Part shown: positions 4,427 to 34,694 of the stretch, one piece after another
Position numbering within the stretch: position 1 is the first letter of the stretch
How the letters are laid out: the number at the start of each line of letters is the position of its first letter
Origin: a virus
Virus genome (UHGV): UHGV-0310767
Length of the DNA: 64,000 bases
Strand: one strand, 5' to 3'
Notes under the pieces: generated by a model
Seen by the model: the letters and a program-made list of their open reading frames with translations, nothing else
Told to the model about the DNA's origin: nothing
The model's database searches: none
Translations under genes and position numbers: made by a program

Positions 4427-4447
4427 CCTTCAATTCGTAAAGTAAAA
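4427..4447 (+). repeat. conserved 21-nt motif CTTCAATTCGTAAAGTAAAAT, copy 1
   Basis: identical 20-21 nt also at 19048, 34674 and (inverted) 33348. Confidence 0.6.
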
Positions 4448-4479
4448 TAACTCCCTAGTTTAAATCTGGGGAGTTATTT
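4443..4479. terminator. intrinsic terminator hairpin (aaaataactccc / gggagttatttt), bidirectional
   Basis: 12-bp stem, 12-nt loop, flanked by A/T runs; downstream of 4609..5091. Confidence 0.45.
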
Positions 4480-4608
4480 TTATTCACAATATTATTTACA
4501 CAATGCTTAAACTACCTATTTTGAATAAATGAAAACTGCTATCAGGTTCCCGGTGTTAGCCCACCGGGACTTTTTATATCATGTCCACATATCCAGTCAA
4601 TAATCATA

Positions 4609-5091
4609 TTAATCAAAAAATTGCTTTCGATATTTATGTTTTTTCTTACTATTATTATAGCGTTTTATTAAATTTTGTACATCTTCTTCTCTTTTTTTCT
4701 TTTCTTTTTTTATTTCTTCTTTTTCTAAATATTGTTTTATATTTCGATTATACATAGAAATAATTTTTTTCATTATTTCTATAGACAATATATCATCTAC
4801 GAAATATTCACGTAAAGAATAGTCATTCATATTTAAACAATAAATATCAAAAAGGCGTTCTAAAGTACATTGTAATCCATAATTATTATCTACGGTATTA
4901 TATATAGTTTCCCTAATTAATTTCATATTTCCATTTTGTTTAAAATAAATAAAAGAAGAATTAAGGTAAATAATGGGAAATTTTTCTAATGTGAAAAATA
5001 CATTCCCTTTAGATTTTTCAAGAGTTAATCTATAAATATGTTTAAATTTAGACAACTCTACTTCTTTTTCTTTAGGTATAAATACCGCCAT
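4609..5091 (-). CDS. hypothetical protein, MAVF(V/I)P family (paralog of 2026..2478)
   Basis: 160 aa; shared N-terminus MAVFIPK...LSKFK.IY.LTLEK...LEKFPI.Y.NS. Confidence 0.45.
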   Translation of the reverse strand: MAVFIPKEKEVELSKFKHIYRLTLEKSKGNVFFTLEKFPIIYLNSSFIYFKQNGNMKLIRETIYNTVDNNYGLQCTLERLFDIYCLNMNDYSLREYFVDDILSIEIMKKIISMYNRNIKQYLEKEEIKKEKKKREEDVQNLIKRYNNSKKKHKYRKQFFD

Positions 5092-5102
5092 AATTTTTCT
5101 CC

Positions 5103-6200
5103 TTATTTTAATCTTATTAAAACAACACCTGAACCTCCTGTAGAAATATATCCTTGATAATTTCCACCAGCACCACCGCCCGTATTAGTTCCTCCGTTAC
5201 CAGCTTGCCAACTGCCATTAGAACCTCCACCGCCGCCCCCGGCACCGCCGCCACCAGGGCTTCCTCCACTTCTTCCAAAACCACCACCACCACCACCGCC
5301 TGAATATATAGTTCCATTAGATTCCCCAAACGCTCTTGTAGTAGAACCTTGACCTAGGCCACCACCACCAGAACCACCTTGTCTACCTGCTGAATTAAAT
5401 CTAGGGTTTCCATCTCCACCATTAGCACTACATAATGTACTACTTCCTTTTTTTACAGTGGTAGTTCCTCCTTTATTACCTCCATATCCACCTCCACCAA
5501 TAGTTATAGATAACACATCTTTTTCAGCTACAGTTATATTATTAACAGTTTTGGTATATCCTGCACCGCCACCACCATTAGCATAATAACTAGAATCCCC
5601 ATATTCACTACCACCACCTCCGCCAACACAGAAAACATCTATTTTAGAATATCCTGCTGGAATTGTGTAATTAGAAGTTGCTTTGATAGTAATTATCTGA
5701 GAACTACCTGTATTTACTGTAGCTTTTAATTGTGTTCCTAAGATTTCCCCATTGGATGTTACACAATAAGAGTAAACAATGAAGTAATACATAGTATCAA
5801 GAGAAGGAAGGGATAAAGCTGTTGTAGATATCCCTCCACTCTCTTGTGATGTTCCTACTCCCTTGTACCCTTCTATACCTGTATCTGGTGTAGGATAGGA
5901 ACCTGTTTGATATCGGATATATACTCCACTATAAGGTCTACCTAGTTCTTCAATAGGATTAGTCCATTGGACTGTAATATTTCTACCACTAGAAACAGAC
6001 AAAATTAAATTGCTTACATTTCCTGGCTCTAGGGTGCCTGTTAGTGAATTTTTGGGGTCTACAGTGTAAAACGTAGTACCTTTGGTTACATGGTTTTTTA
6101 CAGCATCACCTGTCAACTGTAAGGAACCAGTCTCTACATCGTCTGTACTGGCCCCTACGAATTTGTAACCATCCATAACAACGGATGAATCGGCTGTCAA
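5103..6200 (-). CDS. glycine-rich protein with FN3-like domain (fibre-like)
   Basis: 365 aa; ITVQWTNP...YIRY FN3-like segment then long GGGGxG tracts; C-terminus GGSGVVLIRLK. Confidence 0.5.
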   Translation of the reverse strand: MTADSSVVMDGYKFVGASTDDVETGSLQLTGDAVKNHVTKGTTFYTVDPKNSLTGTLEPGNVSNLILSVSSGRNITVQWTNPIEELGRPYSGVYIRYQTGSYPTPDTGIEGYKGVGTSQESGGISTTALSLPSLDTMYYFIVYSYCVTSNGEILGTQLKATVNTGSSQIITIKATSNYTIPAGYSKIDVFCVGGGGGSEYGDSSYYANGGGGAGYTKTVNNITVAEKDVLSITIGGGGYGGNKGGTTTVKKGSSTLCSANGGDGNPRFNSAGRQGGSGGGGLGQGSTTRAFGESNGTIYSGGGGGGGFGRSGGSPGGGGAGGGGGGSNGSWQAGNGGTNTGGGAGGNYQGYISTGGSGVVLIRLK

Positions 6201-6262
6201 GCTATCAGGTATGCCCCCCAGTTGGGAAGCGGTTTAGTATTGGCATCTTAATCTCCTTTATT

Positions 6263-6541
6263 TTATTTAAGTTTTGCTTCAATAAGTTTTGTTAATCTCT
6301 TGTGTTCTTCACGAATTACGTTAATAGCTTCACTTAATTCGTAAGTTTTTCTCTTAAGTTTACGTCTGGTCAATTCTTCTACAGCCGCATGAATAGCCGC
6401 AGGAAGTGTCCCATAATATCCCAAATCTTTCCATTTAGTATATTCTTTTTTTGACGTTTTGAGTTTTGCCCCTGTATCTTCTCTTAAAATATATTGACAT
6501 GGGTCTACGTCAATATATAAATTTTCATAAACATGAATCAT
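6263..6541 (-). CDS. hypothetical protein
   Basis: 92-aa ORF. Confidence 0.35.
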   Translation of the reverse strand: MIHVYENLYIDVDPCQYILREDTGAKLKTSKKEYTKWKDLGYYGTLPAAIHAAVEELTRRKLKRKTYELSEAINVIREEHKRLTKLIEAKLK

Positions 6542-6554
6542 CTTTTTTCTCCTT

Positions 6555-7046
6555 TTATTTAATTAACAGTGAAGTTGTTTTTCTTAAAGGCCCTACTCCT
6601 TTAATTGTTTTTACTTTAGCATCTGCTAATAATTTCTTTTTATCCAGTTTTAAAGAAGCAGGAATCTTTTCAAAATATTTCTTTGGTATAAGGGTTTCAT
6701 CAATTTCACCCAACTGGTCTGCCCCATTTTTTAATGTGATGGTATAAATATTTCCACCACATTTTTTAGTTCCAGTAACTTCCATAGCCCCCTTAAGAGC
6801 ATCTTTAAGCCGATTCATAGAATTTTCCACTGTTTTCATTCTGGCATCCAATCTGGCTTTTTCTTTCTTGATTGCTTCAATCTGAATTTCATATTCCTTA
6901 ATTACATAAACATAATTTTCAGCTTTTGAATCAAGTTCCCCTCCTATTCCTTCCAAAGTATCTTTTAATACTTCTGAATCAGGTTCTTCCTCCAACATAA
7001 TCATAAGTTTAAGCATATCCCCTGTAATTTCTCTTAAACTTCCCAT
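6555..7046 (-). CDS. hypothetical coiled-coil protein
   Basis: 163-aa ORF, K/E-rich helical. Confidence 0.4.
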   Translation of the reverse strand: MGSLREITGDMLKLMIMLEEEPDSEVLKDTLEGIGGELDSKAENYVYVIKEYEIQIEAIKKEKARLDARMKTVENSMNRLKDALKGAMEVTGTKKCGGNIYTITLKNGADQLGEIDETLIPKKYFEKIPASLKLDKKKLLADAKVKTIKGVGPLRKTTSLLIK

Positions 7047-7068
7047 CTTTTAACCTCCTTTTATTATA

Positions 7069-7305
7069 TTATTTTTTGTTGTATATCATTCCAAACAAGA
7101 ATACATATATTCTAAAAAATCTACCCACTTCCTGGTCACTTTCAACAAAATAATTATCACACAAATGCTTCCCATTTTCACAAGTTCCCAAAAATATTTT
7201 AATTCTGCCAACCAAAATGAGATAACTCCCTCTATTAAGTTTAATCGTTTCATCGTATTTTCTTATTGTTCCTTTCTTCATTTTATATACTTCAATTTTA
7301 TTCAT
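7069..7305 (-). CDS. hypothetical protein
   Basis: 78-aa ORF. Confidence 0.3.
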   Translation of the reverse strand: MNKIEVYKMKKGTIRKYDETIKLNRGSYLILVGRIKIFLGTCENGKHLCDNYFVESDQEVGRFFRIYVFLFGMIYNKK

Positions 7306-8818
7306 TATTTATTATTGTCCTTTCTACACTCAATGGAGAATTGAATTGATTGGTACAAAATATATCTTCTGTTCTACCCGTTCCTAAGTCTATATACTGC
7401 CATACTTTAACACCTTGACCATACATAGAAAATCTGGTTTTATAATTATGAGTAATATGGGTAGGCCGCTTACATGTACCAAATCCTTTACGATTTAATA
7501 ATGTATCTACTAATTCCATTTCTTTAGGTCTTAAAGGAAGGATAATCCCTCCATCATCTAATTTAGTTTTAATCTGTTTTGAACCAAAAATACAATTTTC
7601 GTCAATAATATCATTGACAGATTCTTTTCCGTTAAGCTGAGTACCACTATAAGTTCCTATATCATATTCTTCTGATAATGATTTAAGAACTTTTGCAATC
7701 TCAAACAATACCATATCTTGACGAATAGGTGTACTGACTCTTTGTTTGTATTCGCTACCAAATTCTGAGTTATCCCAAATATAATCAAAGAAACAATATT
7801 TTGCACCCCATAAAAAACATTGCCTATAAATATCCTTTAACTTTGGCGTGGTAAAATCTGGCTGGTTAAAAATTTCAATATGAGATTCATATAAAATTTT
7901 TCCTGCTTCCAGTAATCTTTCTTTTTCTATTTTATTATAATTTCCATTAAGTATCCTATGATAAGGAATACCACTAATCCAAGAAATAAATTTAGGCTGT
8001 ACCTCCGTTTTCTGTTGCATTTCTGTGTGAATCATAAAACCGTCACCATCACGATTAGGATTATCTACATATCTTTCTTCTTTGTAATCCCAATACTTAG
8101 TGGCGCATACGTTGCACAAATCTCCTATAGTTGTGGTTGTTTTGCCCCCTCCACTTCCACCAGACCTCAATAATAAATGTCCTTGTTGCCATCCTCGATA
8201 AAAAGTATTCATATAAGGAGATTGTAACATAGCACCCATAACAGGATTACTTTCAAATTCAAGTAATGTATTTTCCCAATCAGCACCAGCCCTCATAGTT
8301 TCTTTACATAATTCTGTATCGTACTTCATGTTAAGCTTATCAGTTTTCTCACTAATTTTAGTCAACATTTTCTTTATATCAAATAAATTAAGATTCTCTC
8401 TTTGACTTTCTTCTGTTTTATCTTCATCATAAAATGAAGTTATATCAATTCCTAAATCTTTGGCATCTCTCAATAAACTATATTTTCTTACAATATTGTA
8501 ATGCAATTCATAATTATCTGGATTTACCAATTGTTTTGCAGTTGATATAAAATCCAAATAATTATTATCCATACATACTTCTAATTGCGAAGGATAATTT
8601 TGTAAGAATTTATCCAATATTATTTCATCTATTTCTTCTGCGCCATTTTTAAACAACCATGCAATAGATTTAAATAATATTTCATGAAATAGAATAGGTT
8701 TAAAATCATCTGAACAAATAGGAAATTTTCTACTTGTGACCAAAGAAGGATTTTGAAACAATATTCCTAATACCATAGAACTGTCAGAAGCAGAATAAAG
8801 CATTATAAATCCTCCCAT
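7298..8818 (-). CDS. replicative DNA helicase, DnaB-like
   Basis: 506 aa; DnaB N-terminal domain pattern (VLGILFQNP...DFKPILFHEILF...EEIDEIIL); Walker A GGSGGGKTT; Walker B FFDYIWDN. Confidence 0.65.
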   Translation of the reverse strand: MGGFIMLYSASDSSMVLGILFQNPSLVTSRKFPICSDDFKPILFHEILFKSIAWLFKNGAEEIDEIILDKFLQNYPSQLEVCMDNNYLDFISTAKQLVNPDNYELHYNIVRKYSLLRDAKDLGIDITSFYDEDKTEESQRENLNLFDIKKMLTKISEKTDKLNMKYDTELCKETMRAGADWENTLLEFESNPVMGAMLQSPYMNTFYRGWQQGHLLLRSGGSGGGKTTTTIGDLCNVCATKYWDYKEERYVDNPNRDGDGFMIHTEMQQKTEVQPKFISWISGIPYHRILNGNYNKIEKERLLEAGKILYESHIEIFNQPDFTTPKLKDIYRQCFLWGAKYCFFDYIWDNSEFGSEYKQRVSTPIRQDMVLFEIAKVLKSLSEEYDIGTYSGTQLNGKESVNDIIDENCIFGSKQIKTKLDDGGIILPLRPKEMELVDTLLNRKGFGTCKRPTHITHNYKTRFSMYGQGVKVWQYIDLGTGRTEDIFCTNQFNSPLSVERTIINNE

Positions 8819-9465
8819 TTCTTTATTTCTTTTATTGGCTTCTTTTTTGTGATTTTTACTATTCTATCACCTTCTTCCATAGTATTTACCATTTTTTGGA
8901 TTTCTTGTTTTTCATAATAAAATTTCTTAGCTTCTTCATAATATCGAGGAAAGATTTGGCCTAAGCCATAATCTGGATTCCAAGAATTTTGTAAAGTTTC
9001 AAACCAATATTGAAGGGTTAAAACCATTCCTGTCCATTTAAAATTATACTTGTCATGGTACATTCCTGCCTGTCTTTGAATGGAAGGATAATCACATTGT
9101 TTTACAGTAATATCAAAGTAAACATAATCTAAAAATGTTTCTTCCCAATAAGCTTCACTGCCTTTATATTTACTTTCATATTCTTGTTCTGAACAATAAT
9201 AATATCTTTCTTTTACGGCAAAAGCTTTCTCTCTTGCAATTCTTTTACCGCAACAGCGGCAAGTTACTATGCCATCTGCCGCTGTGCTATTAATTTTTCT
9301 TCCTTTATTAGTTTGAAGTTCATTATTATAACAATCTTCATTGCAGTAATAACTTCTAGGTTTTGTAGGATGCGGAAAAGCCTGTATCTTATTTATTTTT
9401 TCTCCACAATACTTACATTTTACCTGTATCCCTTTTGATTGTTTAGGATTTAAATTATCTGCCAA
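8803..9465 (-). CDS. zinc-finger (FCS/MYM-like) protein
   Basis: 220 aa; two C-x2-C ... YYC(N/S)E(D/Q) modules. Confidence 0.4.
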   Translation of the reverse strand: MADNLNPKQSKGIQVKCKYCGEKINKIQAFPHPTKPRSYYCNEDCYNNELQTNKGRKINSTAADGIVTCRCCGKRIAREKAFAVKERYYYCSEQEYESKYKGSEAYWEETFLDYVYFDITVKQCDYPSIQRQAGMYHDKYNFKWTGMVLTLQYWFETLQNSWNPDYGLGQIFPRYYEEAKKFYYEKQEIQKMVNTMEEGDRIVKITKKKPIKEIKKWEDL

Positions 9466-9522
9466 CTTTCCACCTCCTTAATAATTATTATATCATTTCA
9501 TTTATCTTTTGTCAATATAAAG

Positions 9523-9806
9523 TTAATGGATTCTTATAAGAACTAAACCAGTTCCACCACTACCTCCCATTCCTTCGGCTCTACCACCACTGGATGAAGT
9601 ACGAGAGCCGCCACCGCCCCCACCTCCACCGCCGCCTGTGTTAGCCGCGCCAGCAGTTCCAGAAGAAGCCCCACTACCACTACTTCCTGTACCACCTCTA
9701 CCGCCACCGCCAGAGCCACCGGTTGACCAGTATAGCTTTTATATGACGGTGAACTTCCAGCATTGAAGTCAAATCCGATTATTGAAGGAACCCTCATGTT
9801 CCACAC
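9523..9806 (-). pseudogene. truncated glycine-rich paralog remnant (C-terminal fragment related to 5103..6200)
   Basis: frame ending at TAA 9523 encodes ...GGSGGGGRGG...GGGGGGGGGG...GGSGGTGLVLIRIH, cf. ...GGSGVVLIRLK of 5103..6200; in-frame stop at 9739; the ORF-track frame (valine-rich) is an artifact. Confidence 0.4.
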
Positions 9807-9920
9807 TACTTTACAGCAGTATTCTCCTTATACCAGGTACAGAGGGTGACTTAATCAGGAATTTTCAACTTCTGCCCAGCATAGATGATAGTACCCTTGA
9901 TGCCGTTCAGGTTGGCAATC

Positions 9921-11305
9921 TCAGGCCAGCGCTTTCTGTTTCAAAGCAGTAACCTTGTTCTTTGTCGGTATCATTTGCGAAAACACCTTCATAAGAACTT
10001 GTTTTACAATACTGTTACCAGCTTGCTTATAGAGTTGGGTGTTGCTGTTCACAGAAGCAGCTTTCCAGTAATCTTCATCTGTGAAACCCATCAACCTCCA
10101 ACACTCAAGTGGTGTCAGCTTACGAATACGAATGAGATACAATTCTCCGTTAATCTCATAGATGAATTTGTGAAACTGCTCTGGAATTTCGTTTGCAAGT
10201 CTGCTTTCTAACAGAAAGTTATCCTTCTGTACAGTAGTTATAGTGTTGCAAACACCATCTAATCTAGGTTCGGCTTCTCTGTGTTCGTTATAGCCGTGGT
10301 GTACTTCTCCGGCTTCATACGCTTTTCTAAGACGTTTTCCTTTTCTTGTAGAACTTGAACCACAGTTTGATGTTAGAGTGGTCATTGTTTTCTGGTCTCT
10401 ATGAAACCCAATTCTCTTACATTCAATGGCTGCATTGCTACCGTAGTTGCTGAGTCCCTTGTAATCTCTGGACAAGAGTGTGGCTGCAACATCTGTTTGT
10501 CTTGCATCAGGTGTTCTGGCTTCATCGGAACTTCCGCAGTTACGCAAGATGATACCATCCCCCCCTGTTCAAGGAACGGAACTATCTTCCCAGAGAATAC
10601 CAGCTTATCAACAAGGTCTTTGGCTTTTTCGGATGTAAGATAGTATTTGTCCTCAACCTGAGGTTCAAGGAAATCAGCCATAACAGTTGTGAGAGGTTCA
10701 ATCTCCGGGAAAATGAACTCATAATCCCCTAAAATGCTTACTGCAATACAGCGATTTCTTGATTGGGGTATTCCATAGTTCATTGCGTTAAGGTCTTGCC
10801 AGAAAGTCTTATATCCTCTTGACTCAAGGTAATTAAGCCAGTTTTCAAAGTCTGGCATATTCTTCTTAGAGTGAACTTGAGGAACATTTTCCATAACCAG
10901 AACTTGCGGTAATTGCTCAGTTTCGTTAAGCAAACGCTCAACTTCCCACAAAAGACCAGAGCGTGTACCACTGTCTTTTCTCATACCTTTTCCCTTGCCA
11001 GCCACAGACAAATCTTGACAAGGAAAAGAATATATAAGCAAGTAAGTATAACGGTCTGTGTCAACAATACCAAGGTCTGCCCCTGATATTTTTGTAATAT
11101 CCATCGTTGGAAAGTTGGTTCCATGAATTGCGTTGTAGCTTGCAACCGGGTACTTATCGAACTCAACCACACGGTAGTGTTCAAAATCTACCCCTATGTC
11201 ACGCAATGCCATAGCTTGACTACCTACACCTGCGAACAGTTCAATAAGTCGAATAGGCTTATCAATCTCATATTTCATTAGTGCATCCTCCTCCTTCTTC
11301 CTCAC
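9921..11305 (-). CDS. DNA (cytosine-5) methyltransferase, interrupted by a frameshift at a G7/C7 homopolymer (10559-10565)
   Basis: N-part: FAGVGS (motif I), FPCQDLS (IV), ENV (VI), QSRNR (VIII); C-part: LTPLECWRLMGF (IX), GNSIV (X); frames rejoin if the tract has 8 G; local GC about 45 percent versus about 28 percent backbone. Confidence 0.7.
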
Positions 11306-11472
11306 ACCCCATAAAGGGGTGTGATTTTAGATTTTGAAAGCGGGACGCACACCGGCAGAGAGAGAAGCGGTTTAGTACTGCCATAATTTAACCAATTCCT
11401 TTCTTTATTTTTTTGATTGACAAGTTACATTTTATAAAAATAATCCCTCCACCAAACGGCAGAGAGATTAAT

Positions 11473-11811
11473 CTATCTCAACACGATTGGAGATATAACA
11501 TCAGGCGCAAATTCATCAAAGAAAGTGACTCCAATTATTTTGATATGCTCACAAGTTTTAAGAACTAAAACATCGTCATAAGCATCCAAATAATATTTGA
11601 ATTTTTCTTCCATGTTTTCTGCCATATTAATTATAATCTCAGGTTTTTTTAATCTATCGTCTTTTATAATAACAGCAATAAACTTATAATCATTTTCCAT
11701 TGCTATTAAAAAATAATTGACGAAAGATTCTCGGCTAATGTATGGATTAGCTACATTACTTTTTTTCTTTGGTTTTGGTTTACGATAAGGATAATAACCA
11801 CTTACTCCCAT
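11473..11811 (-). CDS. hypothetical protein
   Basis: 112-aa ORF. Confidence 0.35.
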   Translation of the reverse strand: MGVSGYYPYRKPKPKKKSNVANPYISRESFVNYFLIAMENDYKFIAVIIKDDRLKKPEIIINMAENMEEKFKYYLDAYDDVLVLKTCEHIKIIGVTFFDEFAPDVISPIVLR

Positions 11812-12854: not shown

Positions 12855-13006
12855 TTTATATTACCTTTCTTATTTTTATGATGATGAAGTTAAATTATTA
12901 AATGTTACAAGACAGTAGAGAGGTTTTAAGTTAATAGGCTACCCAATTCCCCACCTCTTACATTAAAACCTCTCCTATACCCTTTGTAACGTTTTTTAGC
13001 CTATGT

Positions 13007-14032: not shown

Positions 14033-14073
14033 TTAATATCTCCTTATTTTAAAAATTAATTTTAATTATTTTT

Positions 14074-15366: not shown

Positions 15367-16185
15367 CTATGCTAACTGCATATTAAGCATTACATTTTTC
15401 ACAGTTTCTTCTGTATTATGAGAATATCTCTGAGTAGTAGAGATATCAGAATGACAAATTACATCTTTAGCAATATTGATTCCATACTCATTACATATCT
15501 CACTAACATAAGTATGTCTTAAAGTATGATTACTAATATGTTCTTCAATATCTGCTTTTTCTGCAACCTTACGTAACATTTTAGAAATACAATCCCTTCT
15601 CATTGGGGTGCCATGATTACTAACAAATAAGTTAGGGATTCCTGAATTTTTACGTACTTTTATATATTCGTCTACAATTTTCCTACATTCTTCATTAAAG
15701 TATATTTTTCTCTCCCTATCCCCTTTAATTTTAATGGTTACAGTTTGAGAATTATACTGCTCTAAACTTAAATTAATAAGTTCACTAACACGCATACCCG
15801 TAGAAAGATATATAGCAATAATAGCTTTATCTCTAGGATTGCTGGCTTCTGTTAATAAGTTTTTAGCTTCCTTCATAGGAACATAGTCTTTCTTTTTATT
15901 CTTAATTGTTGGAGATTTTATTGTTGTTGCTGGGTTTAATGTCATAGTACCAACCTTACATAAAAAGTCATAGTAACTTTTTATAGCTGTAAGCTTTCTA
16001 GCGATTGTAGCACTGGCGTACCCTCTTTTAACCATCTCTGATTTCCAGTCATAAACTTCTCCATATGTAATTTTTGTTTCTTCTGTATTTACAAAATCAA
16101 AAAATTGATTAATGTCACTTTCGTAAGAAATTCTAGTATCTTCACTTTCAAACCCACCTAAAAATCTTTTAATATTGTTATTCAT
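15367..16185 (-). CDS. tyrosine site-specific recombinase (XerC/D-like integrase)
   Basis: 272 aa; C-terminal HTLRHTYVSE...HSDISTTQRYSH catalytic motif. Confidence 0.75.
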   Translation of the reverse strand: MNNNIKRFLGGFESEDTRISYESDINQFFDFVNTEETKITYGEVYDWKSEMVKRGYASATIARKLTAIKSYYDFLCKVGTMTLNPATTIKSPTIKNKKKDYVPMKEAKNLLTEASNPRDKAIIAIYLSTGMRVSELINLSLEQYNSQTVTIKIKGDRERKIYFNEECRKIVDEYIKVRKNSGIPNLFVSNHGTPMRRDCISKMLRKVAEKADIEEHISNHTLRHTYVSEICNEYGINIAKDVICHSDISTTQRYSHNTEETVKNVMLNMQLA

Positions 16186-19047: not shown

Positions 19048-19067
19048 CTTCAATTCGTAAAGTAAAA
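19048..19067 (+). repeat. conserved motif CTTCAATTCGTAAAGTAAAA, copy 2
   Basis: identical to copies at 4427 and 34674. Confidence 0.6.
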
Positions 19068-19812
19068 AAATAAAACAAAAAACGGCCGGGAATTTTTAAT
19101 ATCGCCATTACCGTTTTTTGTTTTATGTATTTTCGCCTGGAAATTTTCTTTATCGCCATTCTGGGATTTTTAGATTGCCCCAATTTACATACAAATTATT
19201 TATACAATTATTTACAAAAAATATTTTTCAAATTTAAATTGTAAGAATTTTCTGACTTTTAAAAATGGTCATAAAATTTCTGCTGTCTCGGTCCATCTTG
19301 TTTGCATCCTGTTATAAACTCGTAAAAAGCGTTTCTAGCCACTTTACATATGCGCTTGATATTTTATCCATCTTCACTATAAAGTGGCTAGAATTAGCTT
19401 ATAATGCGTTATACGGCATGTTAACATAATACTATGTGGTAAGGAGGATATAACGCCCCTCATTTTACATTGTCGGACATTTCCTCATGAACACTGTTAA
19501 AACTGGTCTTACTTGCTTTTACCGGGTTTTAACAACCTTCCTACATCGTCTAAACCTCTCAGAATCGCCATAGACGGCCTAAACACTCTTAAGCTTATAT
19601 AACTACCTTAAAGCCTTTAAACTCGACTCTCATTGATTCTGATAATCTCTAGTAAATTAATAGGAATGAATTTCAATTCATGACATACAGACTTTTACAC
19701 TTTACTTTATTAAATTATCAATGTCACATAAATAAAAATAAGTAACCCCTAAAGCTTTTACACTTTAAAGATTGCCTATACCTATTTAACGGTTTTATAG
19801 TGGCTATTTAAT

Positions 19813-19947
19813 TCAATGTTCCCATGTCAACCTTTTAATACCATTCACCCATATTTCTATATTACTACCTTCTCTAAACCACTCTACAGCGGTTTTATGG
19901 ACTTCTGTACATTCCCCTGTGGTAGTGTTCATGTAATATTTATTCAT
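19813..19947 (-). CDS. small hypothetical protein (44 aa)
   Basis: AAGGAG RBS; ATG at 19945-19947 (revcomp); TGA stop. Confidence 0.3.
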   Translation of the reverse strand: MNKYYMNTTTGECTEVHKTAVEWFREGSNIEIWVNGIKRLTWEH

Positions 19948-20183
19948 TTGTTGTTTACTCCTTTCTTCTCTTTCCTATAATGATATCATACATTTCATAT
20001 AAAGTCAAGTCTGAATATTTGCTATTTTAAACTGTAATTATCTGATAATTAAAAAATTGTACCTTCCATGTTTGCACAATCAAGTTTGCATTCCACACCA
20101 TACATTATGTAACTATTTAATTATGTAATAATTATATCATCATTTTATGAATCTGTCAATTACTTTTTTATATATTTTCATAA

Positions 20184-24382: not shown

Positions 24383-24411
24383 ATGATATCATACACATTT
24401 CTATATGTCAA
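24383..24411 (-). promoter_or_regulatory. sigma-A promoter with UP-like element (TTGACA-N17-TATCAT on minus strand)
   Basis: plus tgtcaa 24406-24411, atgata 24383-24388; same upstream AT-motif and downstream TTAGTACAT as promoter at 21335. Confidence 0.55.
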
Positions 24412-26368: not shown

Positions 26369-26381
26369 TATTAAATCTCCT

Positions 26382-26857: not shown

Positions 26858-26867
26858 TGTGCACCCC

Positions 26868-27221
26868 CTATATGTTGACGTTGATAGATTTCAGATAATT
26901 CCTAGTTACTCGCTGGAATTTACTATAAAATAGTACTCCCTTAATCTTTTGATTCAGATAATAGTGACCATCGGCAGTCCTTTTGACTACCCATACTTTG
27001 TCAGGATTGAAAATATCTGTAATCTCTTTAGTATATCCTTTTTGCAATGCCTGGACGGCCTTGCTATAGATAGTTTTTGTTTTTTGCGCAAAGTCAACCA
27101 CGTTAGCTAATGTGTGGTATCCCCCTAATGTGCAGGACGTGTGATATTTTGTCCTTACCTCTTTATCCCTTTTGGCCTGCACTATCTCTAAATTTAAACT
27201 ATAATCATGATGCCCGTACAT
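26868..27221 (-). CDS. hypothetical protein
   Basis: 117-aa ORF. Confidence 0.35.
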   Translation of the reverse strand: MYGHHDYSLNLEIVQAKRDKEVRTKYHTSCTLGGYHTLANVVDFAQKTKTIYSKAVQALQKGYTKEITDIFNPDKVWVVKRTADGHYYLNQKIKGVLFYSKFQRVTRNYLKSINVNI

Positions 27222-27224
27222 AAT

Positions 27225-27674
27225 CTATATCCCCCTTATAATTGTTGTGATTATCTCTTTTTCCATGTCTTTTACGGTCATGCCGTCCAGATATCGGCTA
27301 TGGTCGTATATGTCCTTTGCAATGTCCTGTAACGTGATGCGTTGGCCCTTAATTGCCATTAACAAACGTGTATACTCGTCATTATCTCCCAACGTATACA
27401 ATGCCTTGTCAATACAGTATCGCCTTATATCCTCTGCCTGTATTGTATAGTGGCCCTCCGTATATAACCATTGCTTATAAGTATCTGTCAATCCCATATA
27501 ACGTATGCTATCCCGTAACCCTTGTGCTTTGCCGATAGTATACATTGCCATACTATTAGTCATGGTCGTTGGTAAGGATATGTCCTCCAACTCTCTTTGT
27601 GCTTCTTGCGCTTTTTTATTAATGGTGTAATACTCCCAAAAGAGAGTAGCCAATTTTTTGTTGGTAATTGTCAT
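27225..27674 (-). CDS. hypothetical protein
   Basis: 149-aa ORF; GC higher than backbone. Confidence 0.4.
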   Translation of the reverse strand: MTITNKKLATLFWEYYTINKKAQEAQRELEDISLPTTMTNSMAMYTIGKAQGLRDSIRYMGLTDTYKQWLYTEGHYTIQAEDIRRYCIDKALYTLGDNDEYTRLLMAIKGQRITLQDIAKDIYDHSRYLDGMTVKDMEKEIITTIIRGI

Positions 27675-27686
27675 TGTTTATCCTCC

Positions 27687-28145
27687 CTAATATCCCAAAA
27701 GCCTTGTATATTCACCCTCTGCACCTAATTCCCATGCCGTAGCGTTGTATCCGTATAAAGCGGGATTAAACAGTTCTCGCGCCCTTTTATCCATTGCGTT
27801 TTTGTCTGCAAAAAACTCCTCGTTTTTTAGATTGCCTTTGTTTGTCCCTGTCAAAACGTATGTGCGCAATTTATAGGCCACTAAATCATTGATGATAATA
27901 CGTAAGGTATCATCACGCATAACATCATGCTGTACCACCTTGTAACCATCATAGTTGTGATTGCCCATCACATGATGATAGTTACGGCTGTACAACTTAC
28001 CAGACAAACCTATAACCTGTACAAAATTGTATTGATTTGTTGATAAGTTGCTGTAATAATCCCTTAAAATTAATGTGTCTGTAGTTGCATCATGGTTGAT
28101 AAAATTAAATTGTTTTCTCGTTTCTTGCGCTATAGTCTTATTCAT
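27687..28145 (-). CDS. hypothetical protein
   Basis: 152-aa ORF. Confidence 0.4.
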   Translation of the reverse strand: MNKTIAQETRKQFNFINHDATTDTLILRDYYSNLSTNQYNFVQVIGLSGKLYSRNYHHVMGNHNYDGYKVVQHDVMRDDTLRIIINDLVAYKLRTYVLTGTNKGNLKNEEFFADKNAMDKRARELFNPALYGYNATAWELGAEGEYTRLLGY

Positions 28146-28160
28146 GTTAATTACTCCTTT

Positions 28161-28457
28161 CTAGGCTTTGTCTATCTTTTTTCTTATAAATTCTATTATC
28201 GCTTTAGTTTCTTCCCAAAATCTCGCGTTACTTTCTGCATTTTTATACTTTGGCTTCCCGTCTTCGTCTTTTTCTTGTGCTAATTTCGCCCATGCTTTCG
28301 CTTCCTCGTTTCTATAATTTGTACTCATAAGTAAATATGATGTCAGGCTATTCCATTGCCCTTTTGTAAGTGTTACTGTTTTTTCCTCTGCTTCCCACTT
28401 TTCCAAGTCTTTTAATTCTTCCGTTGTTAATTTTTCCATTTTTATAACTCCTTTCAT
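28161..28457 (-). CDS. hypothetical protein
   Basis: 98-aa ORF. Confidence 0.35.
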   Translation of the reverse strand: MKGVIKMEKLTTEELKDLEKWEAEEKTVTLTKGQWNSLTSYLLMSTNYRNEEAKAWAKLAQEKDEDGKPKYKNAESNARFWEETKAIIEFIRKKIDKA

Positions 28458-29174
28458 CTTTTATTTAGTTAAATGTATTTACATTTGTCAATGTACATTA
28501 TAATACCATTCACCTCATACTTTCTTATATATTGGATACGGCAGAACGCCTATAACTTATGTTTCCGACTTGGAAGAGATATTTATTTTTGATTGTGTCG
28601 TGTTGACCACGGTTATACAATACCGCTTACACAATTTCCTGTCAATATGTAAAAATAACTAAATTGCAATCAATTTATTATACATAATAGCTAAAAATAA
28701 ATAGTTGAAATGTTGCAAAAATCACAGTTAGTAATGCCTATTGGTACATTCATATACATATACGTCCACACAATTTTATTTTATTGTATATAATCACATG
28801 TCAAAAAATACCCCTAAAACTTATGCAAAGTGTACAATTATATATGCCTAACTTAAATCATGCACAAAAACCATGTAAGAAAAAATATTTATTTTGTCTA
28901 TTATTTATATTAGCATTCTGAAAAAGTAATCTGATAATTCCCAACACTTTCAGAATTGATTAAATTGTGTTGCCCCATTATCGCACTATTAAATGTATTA
29001 GTCCCCAATAGTTTTAATATACATCAAATCTCGCTACTGTTTAAAAGAATTATCTGATAACTTATTGGGCCAATATACAATTCAATTTAAGTTGCGTATA
29101 GAATTTAAAAGATTGTATATAATTATAAATACAAAACTTGATACCATTAAATTAAATAAGGAGGAATAATATTC

Positions 29175-29471
29175 ATGAGTAACAAATATCAGACAATTAG
29201 AGAAATTTATATTGACCTTTACATTCGCAATAAAGCCATTGTAAGGGCCAACAAGAAAGAAAAACCAGAGGATTTTCCTATTATTAAGGTAAGTGGAAAA
29301 CGGCTCATGCAATTGTCCAGGATGAATTTTTTAAGGAGGAAAGAGATAACCAATGATTTTTCTAATGGTTTACTCACTGATAAGGGATACAAAGAAGAAA
29401 TGACTATTTGCCAATATATTAGTTATCAGATAACCAATACAGAACATTCACAGAAAATTTTGTTTGTTTAG
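29175..29471 (+). CDS. hypothetical protein (lone plus-strand gene; possible regulator)
   Basis: 98 aa; strong RBS AAGGAGGAATAATATTC-ATG; TTATCNGATAA palindromes upstream and inside its 3' end. Confidence 0.45.
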   Translation: MSNKYQTIREIYIDLYIRNKAIVRANKKEKPEDFPIIKVSGKRLMQLSRMNFLRRKEITNDFSNGLLTDKGYKEEMTICQYISYQITNTEHSQKILFV

Positions 29472-29869
29472 AAATTTTTTGCTAATAAAATCACGTCTTT
29501 CAGATTTTTTATCTGTCTAGTTTTTTCTTAATGTTTTATTATGTGCAAATTGTGTTTAGTGCTTCTCAAAACGTGCAGTATTTAAAAGATAGATTAGTAC
29601 TATACGATTACACAAGCACTAAATGCGATTTGCATATACAATTTCAATTACTTTTTCAATAGGTGTGACTGTATAGGCCATTCAAATAAAACCATTACCA
29701 AAATCCCCATTGTCAGATAATAACATAGTATAGCATACTACGTATCATAGTTTCGATTGGAAAAGGGTGAGTGATAATATATGAGGGTAAAAACTAAAAG
29801 CCCAGGAAATGGCCTTTAAACGCTTTACAGGGCATGTTGACATAATAAGAGCGCGGGATTCCACCTCTA

Positions 29870-31450
29870 TATATTATAATAGATTATATATAATGATGGG
29901 ATTAATAAGTGAATATGATAAGTGGAAGTGCTTACAAATTGTGTGGGAATTGTGTAGGATTATGTAAACCTTTATGTTAGCACTGTCAATAGGTGAGTGC
30001 CAAAAGGTAAGTAAATGATTACAATAAGTATGTGGTGATTATCGACAACGATTTATATTTTGTGGCTGTGAATTGTAAATAGGGATTCATAATTCATAGT
30101 GGATGATAGTAAACACTTGCTTACTATATGGAGAGGGCAGAGGTACATATAATATAATATTATATAATATATAATATGAAAATGAAAATAGGAATCGTTA
30201 TCAATATGTTTCACGTGGAACAATAGGTGGGGAATATGGATGAATGTGTGAGCGTGCAGAGGATGGTATAAAGGAGTACAGAGATGTTACAAGGGCGTGT
30301 ATGGGGTGATGTGGACAATTGTGTAGGGATGGGGTGATTGTGGGTATATGGGCGTTGTACTGCGTGATAGGGAAGATGGGAGATTGAGGGATGGAGAATG
30401 TAAGGGGATTGTGGGGAGAATGTGGGGATAGGGTGGATGGAGATAAGGGAGAGTGTAGGATATGTGAGTGAGAGGATGGAGAAAATGGAATGGGAAGATA
30501 TAGGAAAGTATAGGGTGAGAGGTGGGAAGTGTAGGGAGATATGGGAGAGGTGAGAGTGGGAGAATGTGGGTGAATGTATCTCATATTTTGAGGGTTCGCC
30601 ATTACCCTATTATAATATATACATATGTACTCTGTGACATTTCGGACGGACTGAAAACGCTTTCAACCAATACTTTTCATTAGGTAGCGTCAAAAAATTA
30701 ACAAAAACTCAAGGTTTTACCTTAAAAGTGTACATAATATGTATTATGGACGCTTTTTGGATATGGATACACCAACTGCGCATCCCCCCATTCCCCGGCC
30801 TTTTGGCAATTGTCAGAAAATTCACCTTAGATGGGGGGGTACTTTCAGACAATTCGGATATACGAATTTCAAGAATGAGGTATAGCTGTCCCACCACGAA
30901 CTATTTCACTATCTCACCCTCCATCTCATTTATTAATATATATTAATATACTATTATATATTATATTTATATATACCCCTCTATCCCCCTCCTATCTCCC
31001 CTCTCCTATCCATCTCCCACTCAACACATCCCCTACCCTTCCCCCATACTTTTAAAATTTAATTTTAACTCTACACCCTATCCCTTACACTACTATAATT
31101 TATACCACTCCCCTCAGTTTCCCCTATACCTTTCCCTACACTTTTAATCTTCCCTACTCAACTGCACTTTTTATCAATACTTCCGCACCTTGCCTACCTC
31201 AACTTTTTCAATCTCCATTGACGGCAACTCCAATTTTTTCATAAATCACTTCTACGCCTTACACTTTTTAGTAGCACCCCTCTAATTTTCATAACAATTC
31301 AGTACCACTTTTAACCACCCCAAAATTGAGCAAAATTTCTCAAAAATTTTTTGATGCCACCCAAATTTTGGAATCTTAAGCCCCATTCTGATTTGAGCGG
31401 ATTGTGGTGTGATTCTGTCTGGTTACAACCTCATACACGCCATATCTGGC
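29870..31450. other. strand-asymmetric noncoding block: plus strand G/A/T-rich and nearly C-free (about 29870-30600, pure over about 30370-30588), ~350-bp centre, then C/A/T-rich and nearly G-free (about 30960-31450)
   Basis: direct reading of base composition; G3+ tract clusters (e.g. gggatggggtgattgtgggtatatggg); C7...G7 inverted tracts at the centre (about 30786-30850). Confidence 0.6.
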
Positions 31451-31654
31451 CCTTTTACATCTTATCGTGACCAATCCTCCATTTCGCCTATTGAGCCGCT
31501 TCTACTCTCTTGTACTCGTTCATATTTTTTTAAAAATTAAATTTAAAAAAAGAGAACCGACTAAATTCGATTCTCTTATAAGCGTTTTAAGTTTATTTTT
31601 CTAAACATTGCTAAATATAAAGTTTTTATTTAAATCTTTTTTTATTACAATTTA

Positions 31655-32221
31655 TCAATGATAGCCGTTTTCTCTGTCCCACACTTTTCTGTAGTGGTCG
31701 AACATGCCAATATCTGCCGCAAAACTAGTAGTATAGATTGCATCAATATCAAAACTATCATCTTCATCTTCTTCATTGTTTCGATTGGTCAAATCGCTTT
31801 TGTAGGTGTTTAAATCCATCCATCCATGACCATTTAATCTGCCGCTTGTTCCAATGCCCCGTAACACGCCAGTACTGGAAACTGGGGTATTTTTCATATC
31901 TGTATTAAGCATTACTAAATATAAACTTCCGCTTCGTGTCTCCACAATCATTCCTGACTTTAGGAAATCTTTGGGGGCGATATCTTCTTCTTTTGGAGGG
32001 GCCGGGATTGGGGCCGTGTCTGTGAACTGAATATGCTCCACTCTGGGGATTACCATTTTTCCGCTGGGGAGTTTTACCAAGGCAACAGGATATTGTCCTA
32101 ACGAACCTCCTGTCTGATAATCCTTATCATAATTGGTGCTAAAGCCGCAAAACTCGCCGTCTTTGAAAAGTACATATCCTAATTTTTCATCCCAATATTT
32201 ACCACAACATTTACCTTCCAT
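31655..32221 (-). CDS. hypothetical protein
   Basis: 188-aa ORF. Confidence 0.4.
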   Translation of the reverse strand: MEGKCCGKYWDEKLGYVLFKDGEFCGFSTNYDKDYQTGGSLGQYPVALVKLPSGKMVIPRVEHIQFTDTAPIPAPPKEEDIAPKDFLKSGMIVETRSGSLYLVMLNTDMKNTPVSSTGVLRGIGTSGRLNGHGWMDLNTYKSDLTNRNNEEDEDDSFDIDAIYTTSFAADIGMFDHYRKVWDRENGYH

Positions 32222-32232
32222 ATTTTTCCTCC

Positions 32233-32574
32233 TTAAAATGAAAATGGGTCTTTATTTTCCAGGGATTCCACTTCTTCCCAATCCTCGTTTTCTGATGGGA
32301 ATAATGGGGTTTTCTTATTGGGGTTCTTTGGTTCCTTTGGAGTGGGAGTTTCATAGCGGTCGGCATAAATAACCAATTCATTGATTATTTCTTTCCTGCC
32401 ATCCGTAGTGAAACCAACTATATTTAATAGTTGTGCACCAAACTCATTGTGGCGTACAGAATAATCAGCGAATACCACTCTCAGATTCTTCCCTTTGATT
32501 TCATCATCATTAAGTATGTTTCTTAAAGCGTCTGTTGTTAAAAACATTTTGTTGGGTTGGGGATTTTTCATCAT
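32233..32574 (-). CDS. hypothetical protein
   Basis: 113-aa ORF. Confidence 0.35.
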   Translation of the reverse strand: MMKNPQPNKMFLTTDALRNILNDDEIKGKNLRVVFADYSVRHNEFGAQLLNIVGFTTDGRKEIINELVIYADRYETPTPKEPKNPNKKTPLFPSENEDWEEVESLENKDPFSF

Positions 32575-33116
32575 GATTTTTCTCCTTCATCAATTAGATA
32601 TTTGTAGCGGTCAAGTAATTTTTTAATATCACTAGACCTACAGTGGCACCAGAATCTTTCTCCATTTTCATATTCAGCGCATACGCCTACATCCAATATG
32701 TCACCAGAAAACATTGCCATTTTAGGAATGATTTCAGTAGAGTGGCCTATTACGTTCATCTTATTCTTAACACAATAACTTGCCATTTCATAAGGAGTCC
32801 CATAAACCCATGCATTCCACATTTCGTGATAGCCGATTTCATCCCTATGCAATCTGTTCTGAATGTTTTTCAAAATTTCTTTAGCTTTGTCTTTGTATTT
32901 TTCTTCAATTTCCTTTTCTGTTAATTCTACGTAGAACATATAGGATGCATCTATTTTTTCTTCTCTTTCTCCTTTACCCCACATATCCACTGTAACATAG
33001 GCGGCATTAACAGATTTGACAATACCAGAAAACATTCTTTGCCAGCCACCACCTTTTGTACCTTTAATTTCCTGGCCTACTTTTAAATTTTTAGAAGTTA
33101 TCAATTTAGTTTCCAT
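32571..33116 (-). CDS. hypothetical protein
   Basis: 181-aa ORF. Confidence 0.4.
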   Translation of the reverse strand: METKLITSKNLKVGQEIKGTKGGGWQRMFSGIVKSVNAAYVTVDMWGKGEREEKIDASYMFYVELTEKEIEEKYKDKAKEILKNIQNRLHRDEIGYHEMWNAWVYGTPYEMASYCVKNKMNVIGHSTEIIPKMAMFSGDILDVGVCAEYENGERFWCHCRSSDIKKLLDRYKYLIDEGEKS

Positions 33117-33347
33117 TTATTTTTCCTTCTTGCGAAATTTGCAATTGATGGTTATGGCCCTCATATATTGGCTGAATATTTCTAATTCATCTGCTGTTAA
33201 ACCATCCTCCGTCTGAGAAATATATGCTGTGGAATTTTTTATTATAGGAACCATTCTTACACCTATTTGGTTGCCACGAGTTTTTAAAAATAAAATAACT
33301 TTAATTAAACCAAAGGAACCAGTTCAGTCAATAATCATGCCAGTGAG

Positions 33348-33368
33348 ATTTTACTTTACGAATTGAAG
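33348..33368 (-). repeat. conserved 21-nt motif, copy 4 (inverted orientation; minus strand reads CTTCAATTCGTAAAGTAAAAT)
   Basis: plus strand attttactttacgaattgaag; overlaps the stop codon of small ORF 33356..33511. Confidence 0.6.
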
Positions 33369-33511
33369 AAGTAAATACATCTAGGTTCACTTTTAAAATT
33401 CATAGCATATGCTTTTACTGTAATAGAATCAATTTCTTTTACAAATTTTTCAAAATCATTTCTATGAGTACAAACATTTCTATGAATACAATTTTCACAA
33501 GCGTCACTCAT
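33356..33511 (-). CDS. small Cys-containing protein (51 aa, CxxC...C)
   Basis: not in ORF track; strong AGGAGG RBS 6 nt upstream of ATG; MSDACENCIHRNVCTH... Confidence 0.45.
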   Translation of the reverse strand: MSDACENCIHRNVCTHRNDFEKFVKEIDSITVKAYAMNFKSEPRCIYFFNS

Positions 33512-33525
33512 AACCGTTCCTCCTT

Positions 33526-33762
33526 TTAAGCTGGTGTATAACTGTTGTACAGCTTTATAGCATCTTTTAATTTAATGAATGAGGTTTCAACCACTTTTAA
33601 GGGGCCGTTCTCCACAAAAGATTCTTTAATGACCACATAAGAAATTTTGTCGAAATTGGGAATCTGAGGATTGATACAGCCAAATAACATTACTCTCATT
33701 TCGCTGTCCTTATACTCACTCATGATGAACTTCTTAAACAATTCTTCTCTTACTTTATTCAT
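33526..33762 (-). CDS. hypothetical protein
   Basis: 78-aa ORF. Confidence 0.35.
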   Translation of the reverse strand: MNKVREELFKKFIMSEYKDSEMRVMLFGCINPQIPNFDKISYVVIKESFVENGPLKVVETSFIKLKDAIKLYNSYTPA

Positions 33763-33779
33763 TTCTTATTCTCCTTTTA

Positions 33780-34064
33780 TTATAATATTTTTATTGTTTT
33801 TATGTTATAATGAAAATTTAAATAATCTTTAAGAATATTTAAATCATCATTTTCATTTTCTCCACTTATTCTAAATTCTATTGTGTCTTTTAGTAATTCA
33901 GTATTGCGGTTAAATTCAGTAATGCCTAATAAACTTTTGGCATTTACTTCTTTTCTTATGGTTTTATTAACCAATCTTACATCACTGTTTAAAGTACAGG
34001 TGCAAGAAACAACAGATGGAAAATTATGGGGATAACTTTTAAAACAAAATGAAAATATTTTCAT
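33780..34064 (-). CDS. hypothetical protein
   Basis: 94-aa ORF. Confidence 0.3.
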   Translation of the reverse strand: MKIFSFCFKSYPHNFPSVVSCTCTLNSDVRLVNKTIRKEVNAKSLLGITEFNRNTELLKDTIEFRISGENENDDLNILKDYLNFHYNIKTIKIL

Positions 34065-34082
34065 AATATTTTTCTTCTTTCT

Positions 34083-34367
34083 TTACAAGAACAGCCAGGA
34101 GTACAGGCGGAAAAATGGATACAGGATAACCCTGATGATTGATAGGATACAAGTTAGTACAAACAAGAATAAGAAACTCAACACATCAAAGGATAACATC
34201 CACCAGCGTGTATAAACATTTACCTTGTGCTTCGTTTTACCATGCCACCAGCATTTTAAATGAAACAATTGATAAATAAAACCCTGATTAAAACATGTAC
34301 CTTTAACAGATATTGTTTTTTCACAAATAGAACATTTTGCTTCCATTTTAGTAATTATATCCATCAT
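34083..34367 (-). CDS. hypothetical protein with C-terminal TM segment
   Basis: 94-aa ORF; Cys-rich N-terminus, hydrophobic C-terminus. Confidence 0.3.
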   Translation of the reverse strand: MMDIITKMEAKCSICEKTISVKGTCFNQGFIYQLFHLKCWWHGKTKHKVNVYTRWWMLSFDVLSFLFLFVLTCILSIIRVILYPFFRLYSWLFL

Positions 34368-34370
34368 AGT

Positions 34371-34598
34371 TTATTTAATTCCCTTCCTTTCTTTTTTATA
34401 TTTTATATATTTTTCATATATTTCATTCATTTGTTTCATAATATTTTCATCGTTAAAATCTTTTTCAGATAATTGTGCTCTACTTCTTCCTACAGCACAT
34501 GGAGAAACTTTATATTCTTTATCAAATAAATTAAAATCGGATATTACTGTACATTCTCCCATACTGTTCTCAAATTTACAGCCACTTCCATAACACAT
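34371..34598 (-). CDS. hypothetical protein
   Basis: 75 aa; TAGGAGG RBS; downstream of promoter 34628-34656. Confidence 0.4.
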   Translation of the reverse strand: MCYGSGCKFENSMGECTVISDFNLFDKEYKVSPCAVGRSRAQLSEKDFNDENIMKQMNEIYEKYIKYKKERKGIK

Positions 34599-34627
34599 AT
34601 ATTGTTCCTCCTAAAGATTATATTTAT

Positions 34628-34656
34628 ACTATATCATATAAATTATAATATGTCAA
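34628..34656 (-). promoter_or_regulatory. sigma-A promoter (TTGACA-N17-TATAGT on minus strand)
   Basis: plus tgtcaa 34651-34656, actata 34628-34633. Confidence 0.5.
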
Positions 34657-34673
34657 TAGATTTATTTTATTTT

Positions 34674-34694
34674 CTTCAATTCGTAAAGTAAAAT
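34674..34694 (+). repeat. conserved 21-nt motif, copy 3
   Basis: CTTCAATTCGTAAAGTAAAAT identical to copy 1. Confidence 0.6.

Follow-up and report, generated by a model that had tools for sequence, protein, structure and literature searches.

Promoter-early stem-loops (PeSLs), regulatory cassettes that Arbiol and colleagues reportedly described in T4-type phages in 2010, consist of a conserved promoter and stem-loop, act by homologous recombination and have no terminal inverted repeats (TIRs), target duplications or transposase. Mycobacteriophage mobile elements (MPME1 and MPME2), said to have been reported by Sampson and colleagues in 2009, are ~440 bp long, carry 11-bp repeats and their own small reading frame (open reading frame, ORF), and make no target duplication. 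MIC231 mobile insertion cassettes and miniature inverted-repeat transposable elements (MITEs) are non-autonomous derivatives that are mobilised in trans. The IS4 family of insertion sequences (ISs) is defined by a Y(2)R(3)E(6)K motif and D(60–110)D(100–150)E spacing, makes duplications of about one helical turn and has TIRs with 5'-CT or 5'-CA tips; its subgroups include IS10/Tn10, IS50/Tn5, IS231 and ISPepr1, and the TIRs of IS10, IS50 and ISPepr1 start with 5'-CT (PMC2266710). Here we compare with these systems a 20-nucleotide (nt) sequence, CTTCAATTCGTAAAGTAAAA, present in four exact copies in a 64,000-nt stretch of the virus genome UHGV-0310767 (the whole stretch is referred to as the window). 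We consider it very probable that this 20-mer is the TIR of an IS4-like cut-and-paste DDE transposon family that is widespread in gut Clostridia and has entered Enterocloster phages, and that the window copies are remnants of such elements; most likely, the family inserts ~17 nt upstream of promoter −35 boxes.

The 20-mer lies at 4428–4447 (+), 19048–19067 (+), 34674–34693 (+) and 33349–33368 (−), and no extra copy was found in the window even when up to three mismatches were allowed. Its chance expectation in the window is 0.01 matches, and none of 100 shuffles reached four copies, which bears out the original prediction, made from the letters of the window, of a conserved repeat in four exact copies. 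All four sites had been placed correctly apart from a one-base slip at the first, which starts at 4428 and not at 4427; the repeat had been described as a perfect 21-mer, and a T does occupy the 21st base in copies 1, 3 and 4, but it is missing from copy 2, so that the shared unit is 20 nt. Conservation around the copies ends sharply at the 20-mer, with flanking hairpins and promoter spacers that are mutually non-homologous, and an Rfam scan of the full window gave no match at any copy. The genes of window 1–38000 are on the minus strand, and on this (gene) strand the three same-orientation copies read TTTTACTTTACGAATTGAAG. The copies and the sequences that accompany them are as follows, with strand referring to this reading:

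4428–4447, minus strand: TIR copy 1, an exact match with its outer tip at 4428, toward the primase promoter.
4448–4607, unstranded: interior of a truncated, transposase-less miniature element, in which the left end contributes a hairpin and the right end subterminal sequence but no TIR.
19048–19067, minus strand: TIR copy 2, a bare solo TIR with a native terminator on one side and a native promoter on the other.
19071–19125, unstranded: native bidirectional terminator hairpin (−20.8 kcal/mol, z −4.4) that abuts copy 2 and is also kept in CB457P2, where the TIR is missing.
33325–33368, plus strand: TIR copy 3 (the TIR itself at 33349–33368) with 24 nt of adjoining subterminal sequence, together a solo transposon end of 44 bp.
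34674–34693, minus strand: TIR copy 4, an exact match with its outer tip at 34674.
34694–35000, unstranded: remnant of an autonomous IS end with the transposase gene deleted, matching the subterminal region of the element L083.

Species-representative genomes and metagenomes were scanned with the 18-mer core of the TIR. The full 20-mer was found in many Clostridia (Lachnospiraceae, Oscillospiraceae, Erysipelotrichaceae and Clostridium). Matches to the 18-mer outside the Firmicutes (Shewanella, Bacteroidetes and others) had tip mismatches and no hairpin or promoter context; these were taken as chance and left out of the statistics. Across bacterial, metagenome and phage contigs, 25 TIR-bounded units of 1.5–5.2 kb were found to carry a transposase gene, and the encoded proteins are homologous and 458–470 aa long. 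The TIR core CTTCAATTCGTAAAGTA is invariant at both ends of these 25 units, with an outer 5'-CT tip, and is unchanged even between elements whose transposases share only ~50% identity, which argues for constraint from transposase recognition and not for recent common descent alone. Perfect direct target-site duplications of 8–11 bp flank 18 of the 37 left–right TIR pairs, with a mode of 9 bp (8 bp in six pairs, 9 bp in eight, 10 bp in three and 11 bp in one).

The transposase matches Pfam DDE_Tnp_1 at 4e-15, and the Y-2-R-3-E-6-K signature is present as YELRPEIEEDYRQLK in the transposases of three elements (L011, L022 and L026). Candidate catalytic residues, assigned by motif, are D157 (LDCT), D238 (DRGF) and E355, with spacings of 81 and 117 (D-81-D-117-E) that would lie inside the ranges of the IS4 definition. 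As in the IS4 family, there is a single-ORF DDE transposase with a Y(2)R(3)E(6)K motif, together with duplications of about one helical turn; the 5'-CT start of the TIRs is shared with the IS10, IS50 and ISPepr1 subgroups. By contrast, the TIR fits no subgroup consensus in PMC2266710, the transposase falls under the NCBIfam IS4 cut-offs, many members carry passenger genes, and the apparent target is a fixed position upstream of the −35 hexamer. The 20-mer family agrees on most criteria with an IS4-family transposon and its non-autonomous derivatives (MIC231-like cassettes and MITEs), but judged against the NCBIfam models it is best described as IS4-like and of an unclassified subgroup, set outside the curated IS4 subgroups because its transposase fails the NCBIfam cut-offs.

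Relatives of the transposase make up 1136 clusters at E ≤ 1e-20 and are named just 'transposase' in Lachnospiraceae, Hungatella and Emergencia. Members range from simple ISs of 1.5–1.8 kb through 3–5 kb transposons with passengers to transposase-less cassettes and miniature elements. The passenger genes of larger members include an XRE-type regulator beside the transposase, Fic, DUF3990, and zinc-ribbon and choline-binding proteins. An autonomous element is found in the genome of Clostridium sp. AM22-11AC; its left end and first ORF are ~82% identical to the phage cassette and its transposase gene shares 81% DNA identity with the phage-borne one. More distant members in metagenome and genome contigs (L056–L069) have the variant TIRs TTTTACTTTGCGAATTGAAG and AGGTACTTTGCGAATTGAAG, and consistently carry an XRE-type helix-turn-helix gene divergent from the transposase, plus toxin-like passengers (Fic, DUF3990). 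When extra independent insertion sites were sought in contigs encoding P0032 and P0059, only repeats of two loci with slightly variant TIRs were found. At the smallest end of the size range, two inverted TIRs around a 19-nt hairpin form a 59-bp palindrome in an Oscillibacter metagenome-assembled genome (L036, 258–316), and inverted TIRs abut directly over 40 bp in a Roseburia one (L023, 2758–2797), neither with a target duplication; these pairs could be minimal miniature elements or integrated end-to-end junctions.

Filled and empty sites, like the TIRs, target duplications and transposase genes above, can be seen directly among the phages. The window shares ~99% identity with PMBT24 (OQ326496.2), a virulent phage of Enterocloster bolteae, and CB457P1 and CB457P2 are looser relatives. 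PMBT24 holds six copies of the 20-mer, and when the window and PMBT24 are aligned, indel breakpoints fall on copies of it: a 1.1-kb segment between inverted copies (PMBT24 1077–2176) is not in the window, window 4608–6124 stands in place of 30 PMBT24 bp that include a copy, and window 32589–33368 and PMBT24 3129–3724 are alternative segments with copy 3 as their boundary. Target sites that are filled in relatives and empty in the window are:

31652–31659, unstranded: TTATCAAT, single here; an 8-bp direct duplication of it flanks the PMBT24 1077–2176 cassette.
31624–31633, unstranded: TTTTATTTAA; a 10-bp duplication flanks a 0.8-kb cassette in the IMG/VR relative L015 (4782–5581).
4896–4903, minus strand: ATATAATA (minus-strand reading), uninterrupted here; present as an 8-bp duplication in L011/L007.

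The L015 cassette is a version of the PMBT24 1.1-kb unit that lies 27 bp away from it, and the two have common ends, different passenger ORFs and no transposase; both TIRs and the duplication are present in each (8 bp in PMBT24, 10 bp in L015). An autonomous copy is found in L011 and L007 (IMGVR_UViG_3300023717_000001), where a 20-mer-bounded insertion within the orthologue of the window's 160-aa ORF encodes a 460-aa transposase and a 230-aa passenger protein. As with MPME1/2, these are small inverted-repeat mobile elements that are polymorphic among closely related phages; unlike the 20-mer family, MPMEs have neither a DDE/YREK transposase partner nor a link to promoters. The 1.5 kb of window 4608–6124 that PMBT24 does not have encode the 160-aa ORF and the greater part of a glycine-rich protein of 365 aa (Pfam Gly_rich_2), and in PMBT24 a TIR adjoins codon ~25 of the glycine-rich gene, an arrangement that resembles a deletion next to a transposon end. 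The window also has ORF-poor stretches at 19068–20000 (~1 kb) and 28500–31600 (~3 kb), the second of which spans the start and end of the PMBT24 record (window 30581/30582) and possibly holds the pac region; both cassette insertions of the PMBT24 lineage sit at its edge.

The four copies in the window itself are transposase-less, non-autonomous remnants that would be mobilisable only in trans, if at all. Because window 4448–4480 and 4524–4607 match the two ends of an autonomous 3010-bp element (L103), the unit that begins with copy 1 (4428–4607) is an internally deleted miniature element; its hairpin at 4444–4480 has a free energy of −15.8 kcal/mol (z −5.6). A complete 211-bp version of this unit with both TIRs is kept in PMBT24 (73405–73615), and in the window the right TIR is lost and 1.5 kb of other DNA is found there. 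At copy 3, the 24-nt inner flank is 100% identical to the ends of two autonomous elements (L166 and L074), and the 44 bp occupy the place of 419 bp found in the sister contig L015 (7282–7700). Beside copy 4, all 134 nt of 34712–34845 agree (100% identity) with the subterminal region of L083, an element of 3210 bp that has a transposase and an 8-bp target-site duplication, and a second block of 33 nt matches too. On the strength of the 134-nt identity, copy 4 is what is left of an IS that resided here recently and has lost its transposase gene; the PMBT24 interior at this locus matches the bacterial element L029, at an equal distance from the TIR. Window 4428–4607 and 34674–35000 therefore share with MITEs and mobile insertion cassettes ends that match autonomous elements and no transposase inside, and the sister units PMBT24 1077–2176, L015 4782–5581 and PMBT24 73405–73615 are likewise transposase-less TIR units with unrelated passengers or none and with ends as in autonomous relatives. 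They differ from MIC231 and MITEs in that they reside in virulent phage genomes, and the window copies are single ends or truncated, not intact cassettes. A search with up to five errors for degenerate partner TIRs of copies 2 and 4 gave only noise.

Each of the three same-orientation copies adjoins a strong, sigma-70-type, early-type promoter. These promoters, and a TIR-less one for which a sister genome provides an occupied counterpart, are:

4410–4382, minus strand: primase promoter, TTGACA-N17-TGaTATATT, TG-extended; 17 nt from the tip of TIR copy 1 to the −35 hexamer.
19029–19001, minus strand: promoter P19029, TTTACA-N17-TGtTATAAT, TG-extended; 18 nt from the tip of TIR copy 2.
34656–34628, minus strand: promoter of gene 34371..34598, TTGACA-N17-TGaTATAGT, TG-extended; 17 nt from the tip of copy 4.
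20130–20177, minus strand: promoter P20159, without a TIR; in its orthologue in the sister contig L009, exactly 17 nt separate the −35 hexamer from the tip of a TIR upstream.

The claim that copies lie just upstream of promoters thus holds, with a spacing (17, 18 and 17 nt) tighter than had been claimed. Such constancy, together with a conservation of the 20 nt that is much better than that of the promoter hexamers, is what would be expected of a binding site at about −54 to −73 through which a phage or host activator or repressor, or a sigma-associated or HU/IHF-type factor, controlled a subset of early promoters, a type of site that had been among the original candidates. However, only 3 of the 13 strong minus-strand early-type promoters in the window carry the 20-mer, and orthologous promoters in sister phages occur with or without it: the P19029 orthologue in CB457P2 is present without a 20-mer, and homology between L009 and the window at P20159 starts exactly at the TIR tip. 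Across the PMBT24-like lineage, at least five different early-type promoters are occupied by a TIR in one genome or another. Furthermore, the inverted copy (33349–33368) has no adjoining promoter and makes up the end of ORF 33356..33511 (its final codons with the stop codon), and the same sequence occurs with duplications and a transposase in unrelated contexts across families of Clostridia. The proposal of an activator, repressor or sigma/HU/IHF-dependent site is not supported by these data, and we regard a regulator site as very unlikely. Unlike the operator of a phage regulon, the 20-mer is neither at the whole promoter set nor confined to one phage or host regulon. The window also contains a second promoter-associated repeat, in that the minus-strand promoters at 24411 and 21363 share ~30 nt, ttttaaaatttatttttaaaaagtaTTGACA, right after their terminator hairpins; this repeat is unrelated to the TIR.

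The spacing seen in the window extends across the family. When 146 distinct outer flanks (phage, genome and metagenome loci) were compared, 43 had an outward strong promoter whose −35 starts 16–21 nt from the TIR tip (mode 17), and only eight have an outward promoter elsewhere within 0–60 nt of the tip. No promoter at 16–21 nt was found on inner flanks or on the opposite strand, and at random positions of the same loci 0.65% had a promoter at that offset (p ~ 4e-29 for the first 49 flanks). Exact TTGACA occurs at offsets 15–20 in 25 flanks and at all other offsets in three. When empty sites were rebuilt from duplication-verified insertions, the promoter was found in the target DNA beyond the duplication, and is thus not carried by the element. 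Since purifying selection by itself would limit only how short the distance can be and would not produce a peak 4 nt wide, we infer choice of the target site; on these comparisons, targeted insertion upstream of promoters is the likeliest cause of the spacing. A preference of the family for one fixed insertion position would then account for the three window copies that lie 17–18 nt upstream of early-type promoters. A literature search for ISs that target −35 regions found no precedent within the incomplete coverage available.

The position of the 20-mer between a stem-loop terminator and an early promoter, its recurrence in variable regions and its presence at mosaic junctions of related phages are all features shared with the PeSLs of T4. 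It could accordingly be asked whether the 20-mer is a portable block of homology, a linker between terminator and early promoter through which co-infecting phages exchange modules by homologous recombination with no transposase. The mosaic breakpoints of the window, PMBT24, CB457P1/P2 and IMG/VR contigs do fall on the 20-mer, one inner flank can occur with differing outer flanks and vice versa (L015 9006 versus L016 6882), the primase promoter is paired with two different hairpins, and the phage encodes RecA-like and Gam-like proteins. Homologous exchange, on the other hand, makes neither 8–11 bp duplications nor inverted terminal copies and leaves the transposase gene inside bounded units unexplained, and 20 bp is very short for homologous recombination. 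Moreover, unlike in PeSLs, the hairpins and promoters at the different copies share no homology with one another; conservation is limited to the 20-mer, which is accompanied by a transposase, inverted terminal copies and duplications. Flank swaps are explained equally well by independent targeted insertions at one promoter. An exchange block of this kind is therefore very improbable as the primary explanation, and recombination at TIRs may be a secondary process. A recombination site had been among the original candidates and came closest of them, with the refinement that the 20-mer is specifically the end of a mobile element, the TIR that a transposase would recognise and cleave. The original prediction had also held that a dispersed repeat with no positional relation to promoters elsewhere would speak against it; the 20-mer is indeed part of a mobile repeat that is dispersed, but the positional relation to promoters is also seen far outside this phage.

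Other recombination enzymes were considered as the source of the 20-mer. The window encodes a XerD-like tyrosine recombinase (15367–16185, minus strand; Pfam Phage_integrase with a SAM-like N-terminal domain), though the phage is described as virulent. A target of this recombinase was set aside in view of the inverted terminal copies, the 8–11 bp duplications, the internal DDE transposase and the absence of dif- or att-like core symmetry; the first three of these features also led us to set aside a homing-endonuclease target.

The hairpins directly preceding copies 1 and 2 on the minus strand are strong and terminator-like (z −5.6 and −4.4, respectively), with the element's own TTTT as their U-tract; copy 4 has a weak hairpin only and copy 3 none. 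Element ends in the family often carry such outward-facing terminator hairpins, whose U-tract is the TTTT of the TIR, so that insertions would slot between a terminator and a promoter and break neither, which is probably why they are tolerated in a compact lytic phage. The shared U-tract at copies 1 and 2 also lends itself to another interpretation, in which solo TIRs beside promoters have been exapted, either to insulate the promoter through a longer terminator U-tract or to let a host-encoded transposase bound there modulate early transcription. At least five related genomes (the window, PMBT24, CB457P1, L009 and L013) retain the bare TIR of copy 2, as exaptation would predict. Conservation among genomes that are 91–99% identical is nevertheless expected from descent alone, and CB457P2, in which both flanks of copy 2 are present and ~24–27 nt including the 20-mer are missing, keeps the same terminator and promoter without a TIR. 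Exaptation is thus extremely unlikely.

Taken together, these data point to a TIR that the transposase would bind and cut at the CTTCAA tip, with insertion generating an 8–11 bp target duplication, as suggested by the chemistry of the family. Members of the family have entered the genomes of PMBT24-like virulent Enterocloster phages repeatedly. The preferred insertion, on statistical grounds, would be into a ~9-bp target ~8 nt upstream of a −35 hexamer whose promoter is oriented away from the element, and the site might be recognised by way of TTGACA itself or of promoter-bound RNA polymerase. Repeated targeted insertion would explain the swapping of flanks at the 20-mer at least as well as recombination there. 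A stronger form of this model, which we judge to be about evenly balanced between right and wrong, is that the family is a promoter-homing transposon whose transpososome recognises sigma-70-type promoters via the −35 hexamer or bound RNA polymerase and inserts in a fixed register, with its tip 17 ± 1 nt upstream of the −35 of a promoter that faces away from it; this safe harbour would permit it to colonise compact virulent phages and to shuttle passengers between gut Clostridia and phages.

Several observations weigh against the interpretation of the 20-mer as a transposon end. None of the four window copies is part of an intact TIR pair with a target duplication, all being single ends or truncated; copy 2 is a bare 20-mer whose flanks show no homology to a transposon interior; and small TIR pairs (40–1800 bp), including those upstream of the primase promoter, are mostly without target duplications. 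By tblastn, neither the window nor PMBT24, CB457P1 or CB457P2 (the last over its first 100 kb) showed a transposase gene, and there was none among 50,697 GenBank phage records. The best NCBIfam model for the transposase, NF033592 (IS4), gives 73 bits against a cut-off of 115, with lower scores for other IS4, IS701, IS982 and IS1634 models, and a PDB sequence search with the transposase found no relative. Finally, the promoter spacing could stem in part from selection rather than target choice.

Several other features of the window were noted. An 831-aa ORF (39147–41642, plus strand) is annotated in PMBT24 as 'RNA-dependent RNA polymerase' but is not matched by any Pfam family; it might be a single-subunit RNA polymerase of the YonO type that transcribes late genes, which would fit the restriction of sigma-70-type promoters to the early/middle (minus-strand) block. 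The gene for the terminase large subunit is interrupted by two insertions, neither of them in PMBT24. The first (45128–46280) contains a LAGLIDADG endonuclease ORF (45188..46006), and the second (47025–48300) consists of a group I intron (Rfam RF00028, 96.6 bits, 47025–47355), the sole Rfam match in the whole window, followed by an ORF for an endonuclease with a NUMOD3 motif (47661..48275).

To our knowledge, reports of DDE transposons in the genomes of lytic phages are rare. Neither repeats nor transposons are mentioned in the genome paper on PMBT24, and a full-text search for the 20-mer sequence, in a literature of incomplete coverage, found nothing. The kind of element is known; what seems to be new, as far as can be read from the genomes, is an apparently active family in virulent phages and its apparent promoter-homing register. 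An apparent regulatory motif of a phage is the footprint of a transposon family found both in gut Clostridia and in virulent phages of these bacteria. The 17-mer core can serve in annotation to mark these elements and to flag mosaic junctions in the genomes of Clostridia and phages. Polymerase-directed integration is known from the retrotransposons of yeast, and if the fixed spacing to the −35 reflects target choice, the family would be a bacterial counterpart and a possible tool for the insertion of cargo at promoters. With occupied and vacant sites, cargo cassettes and an autonomous copy all in a single phage lineage, the family lends itself well to the study of how genes move between host and phage and how variable phage regions are built.

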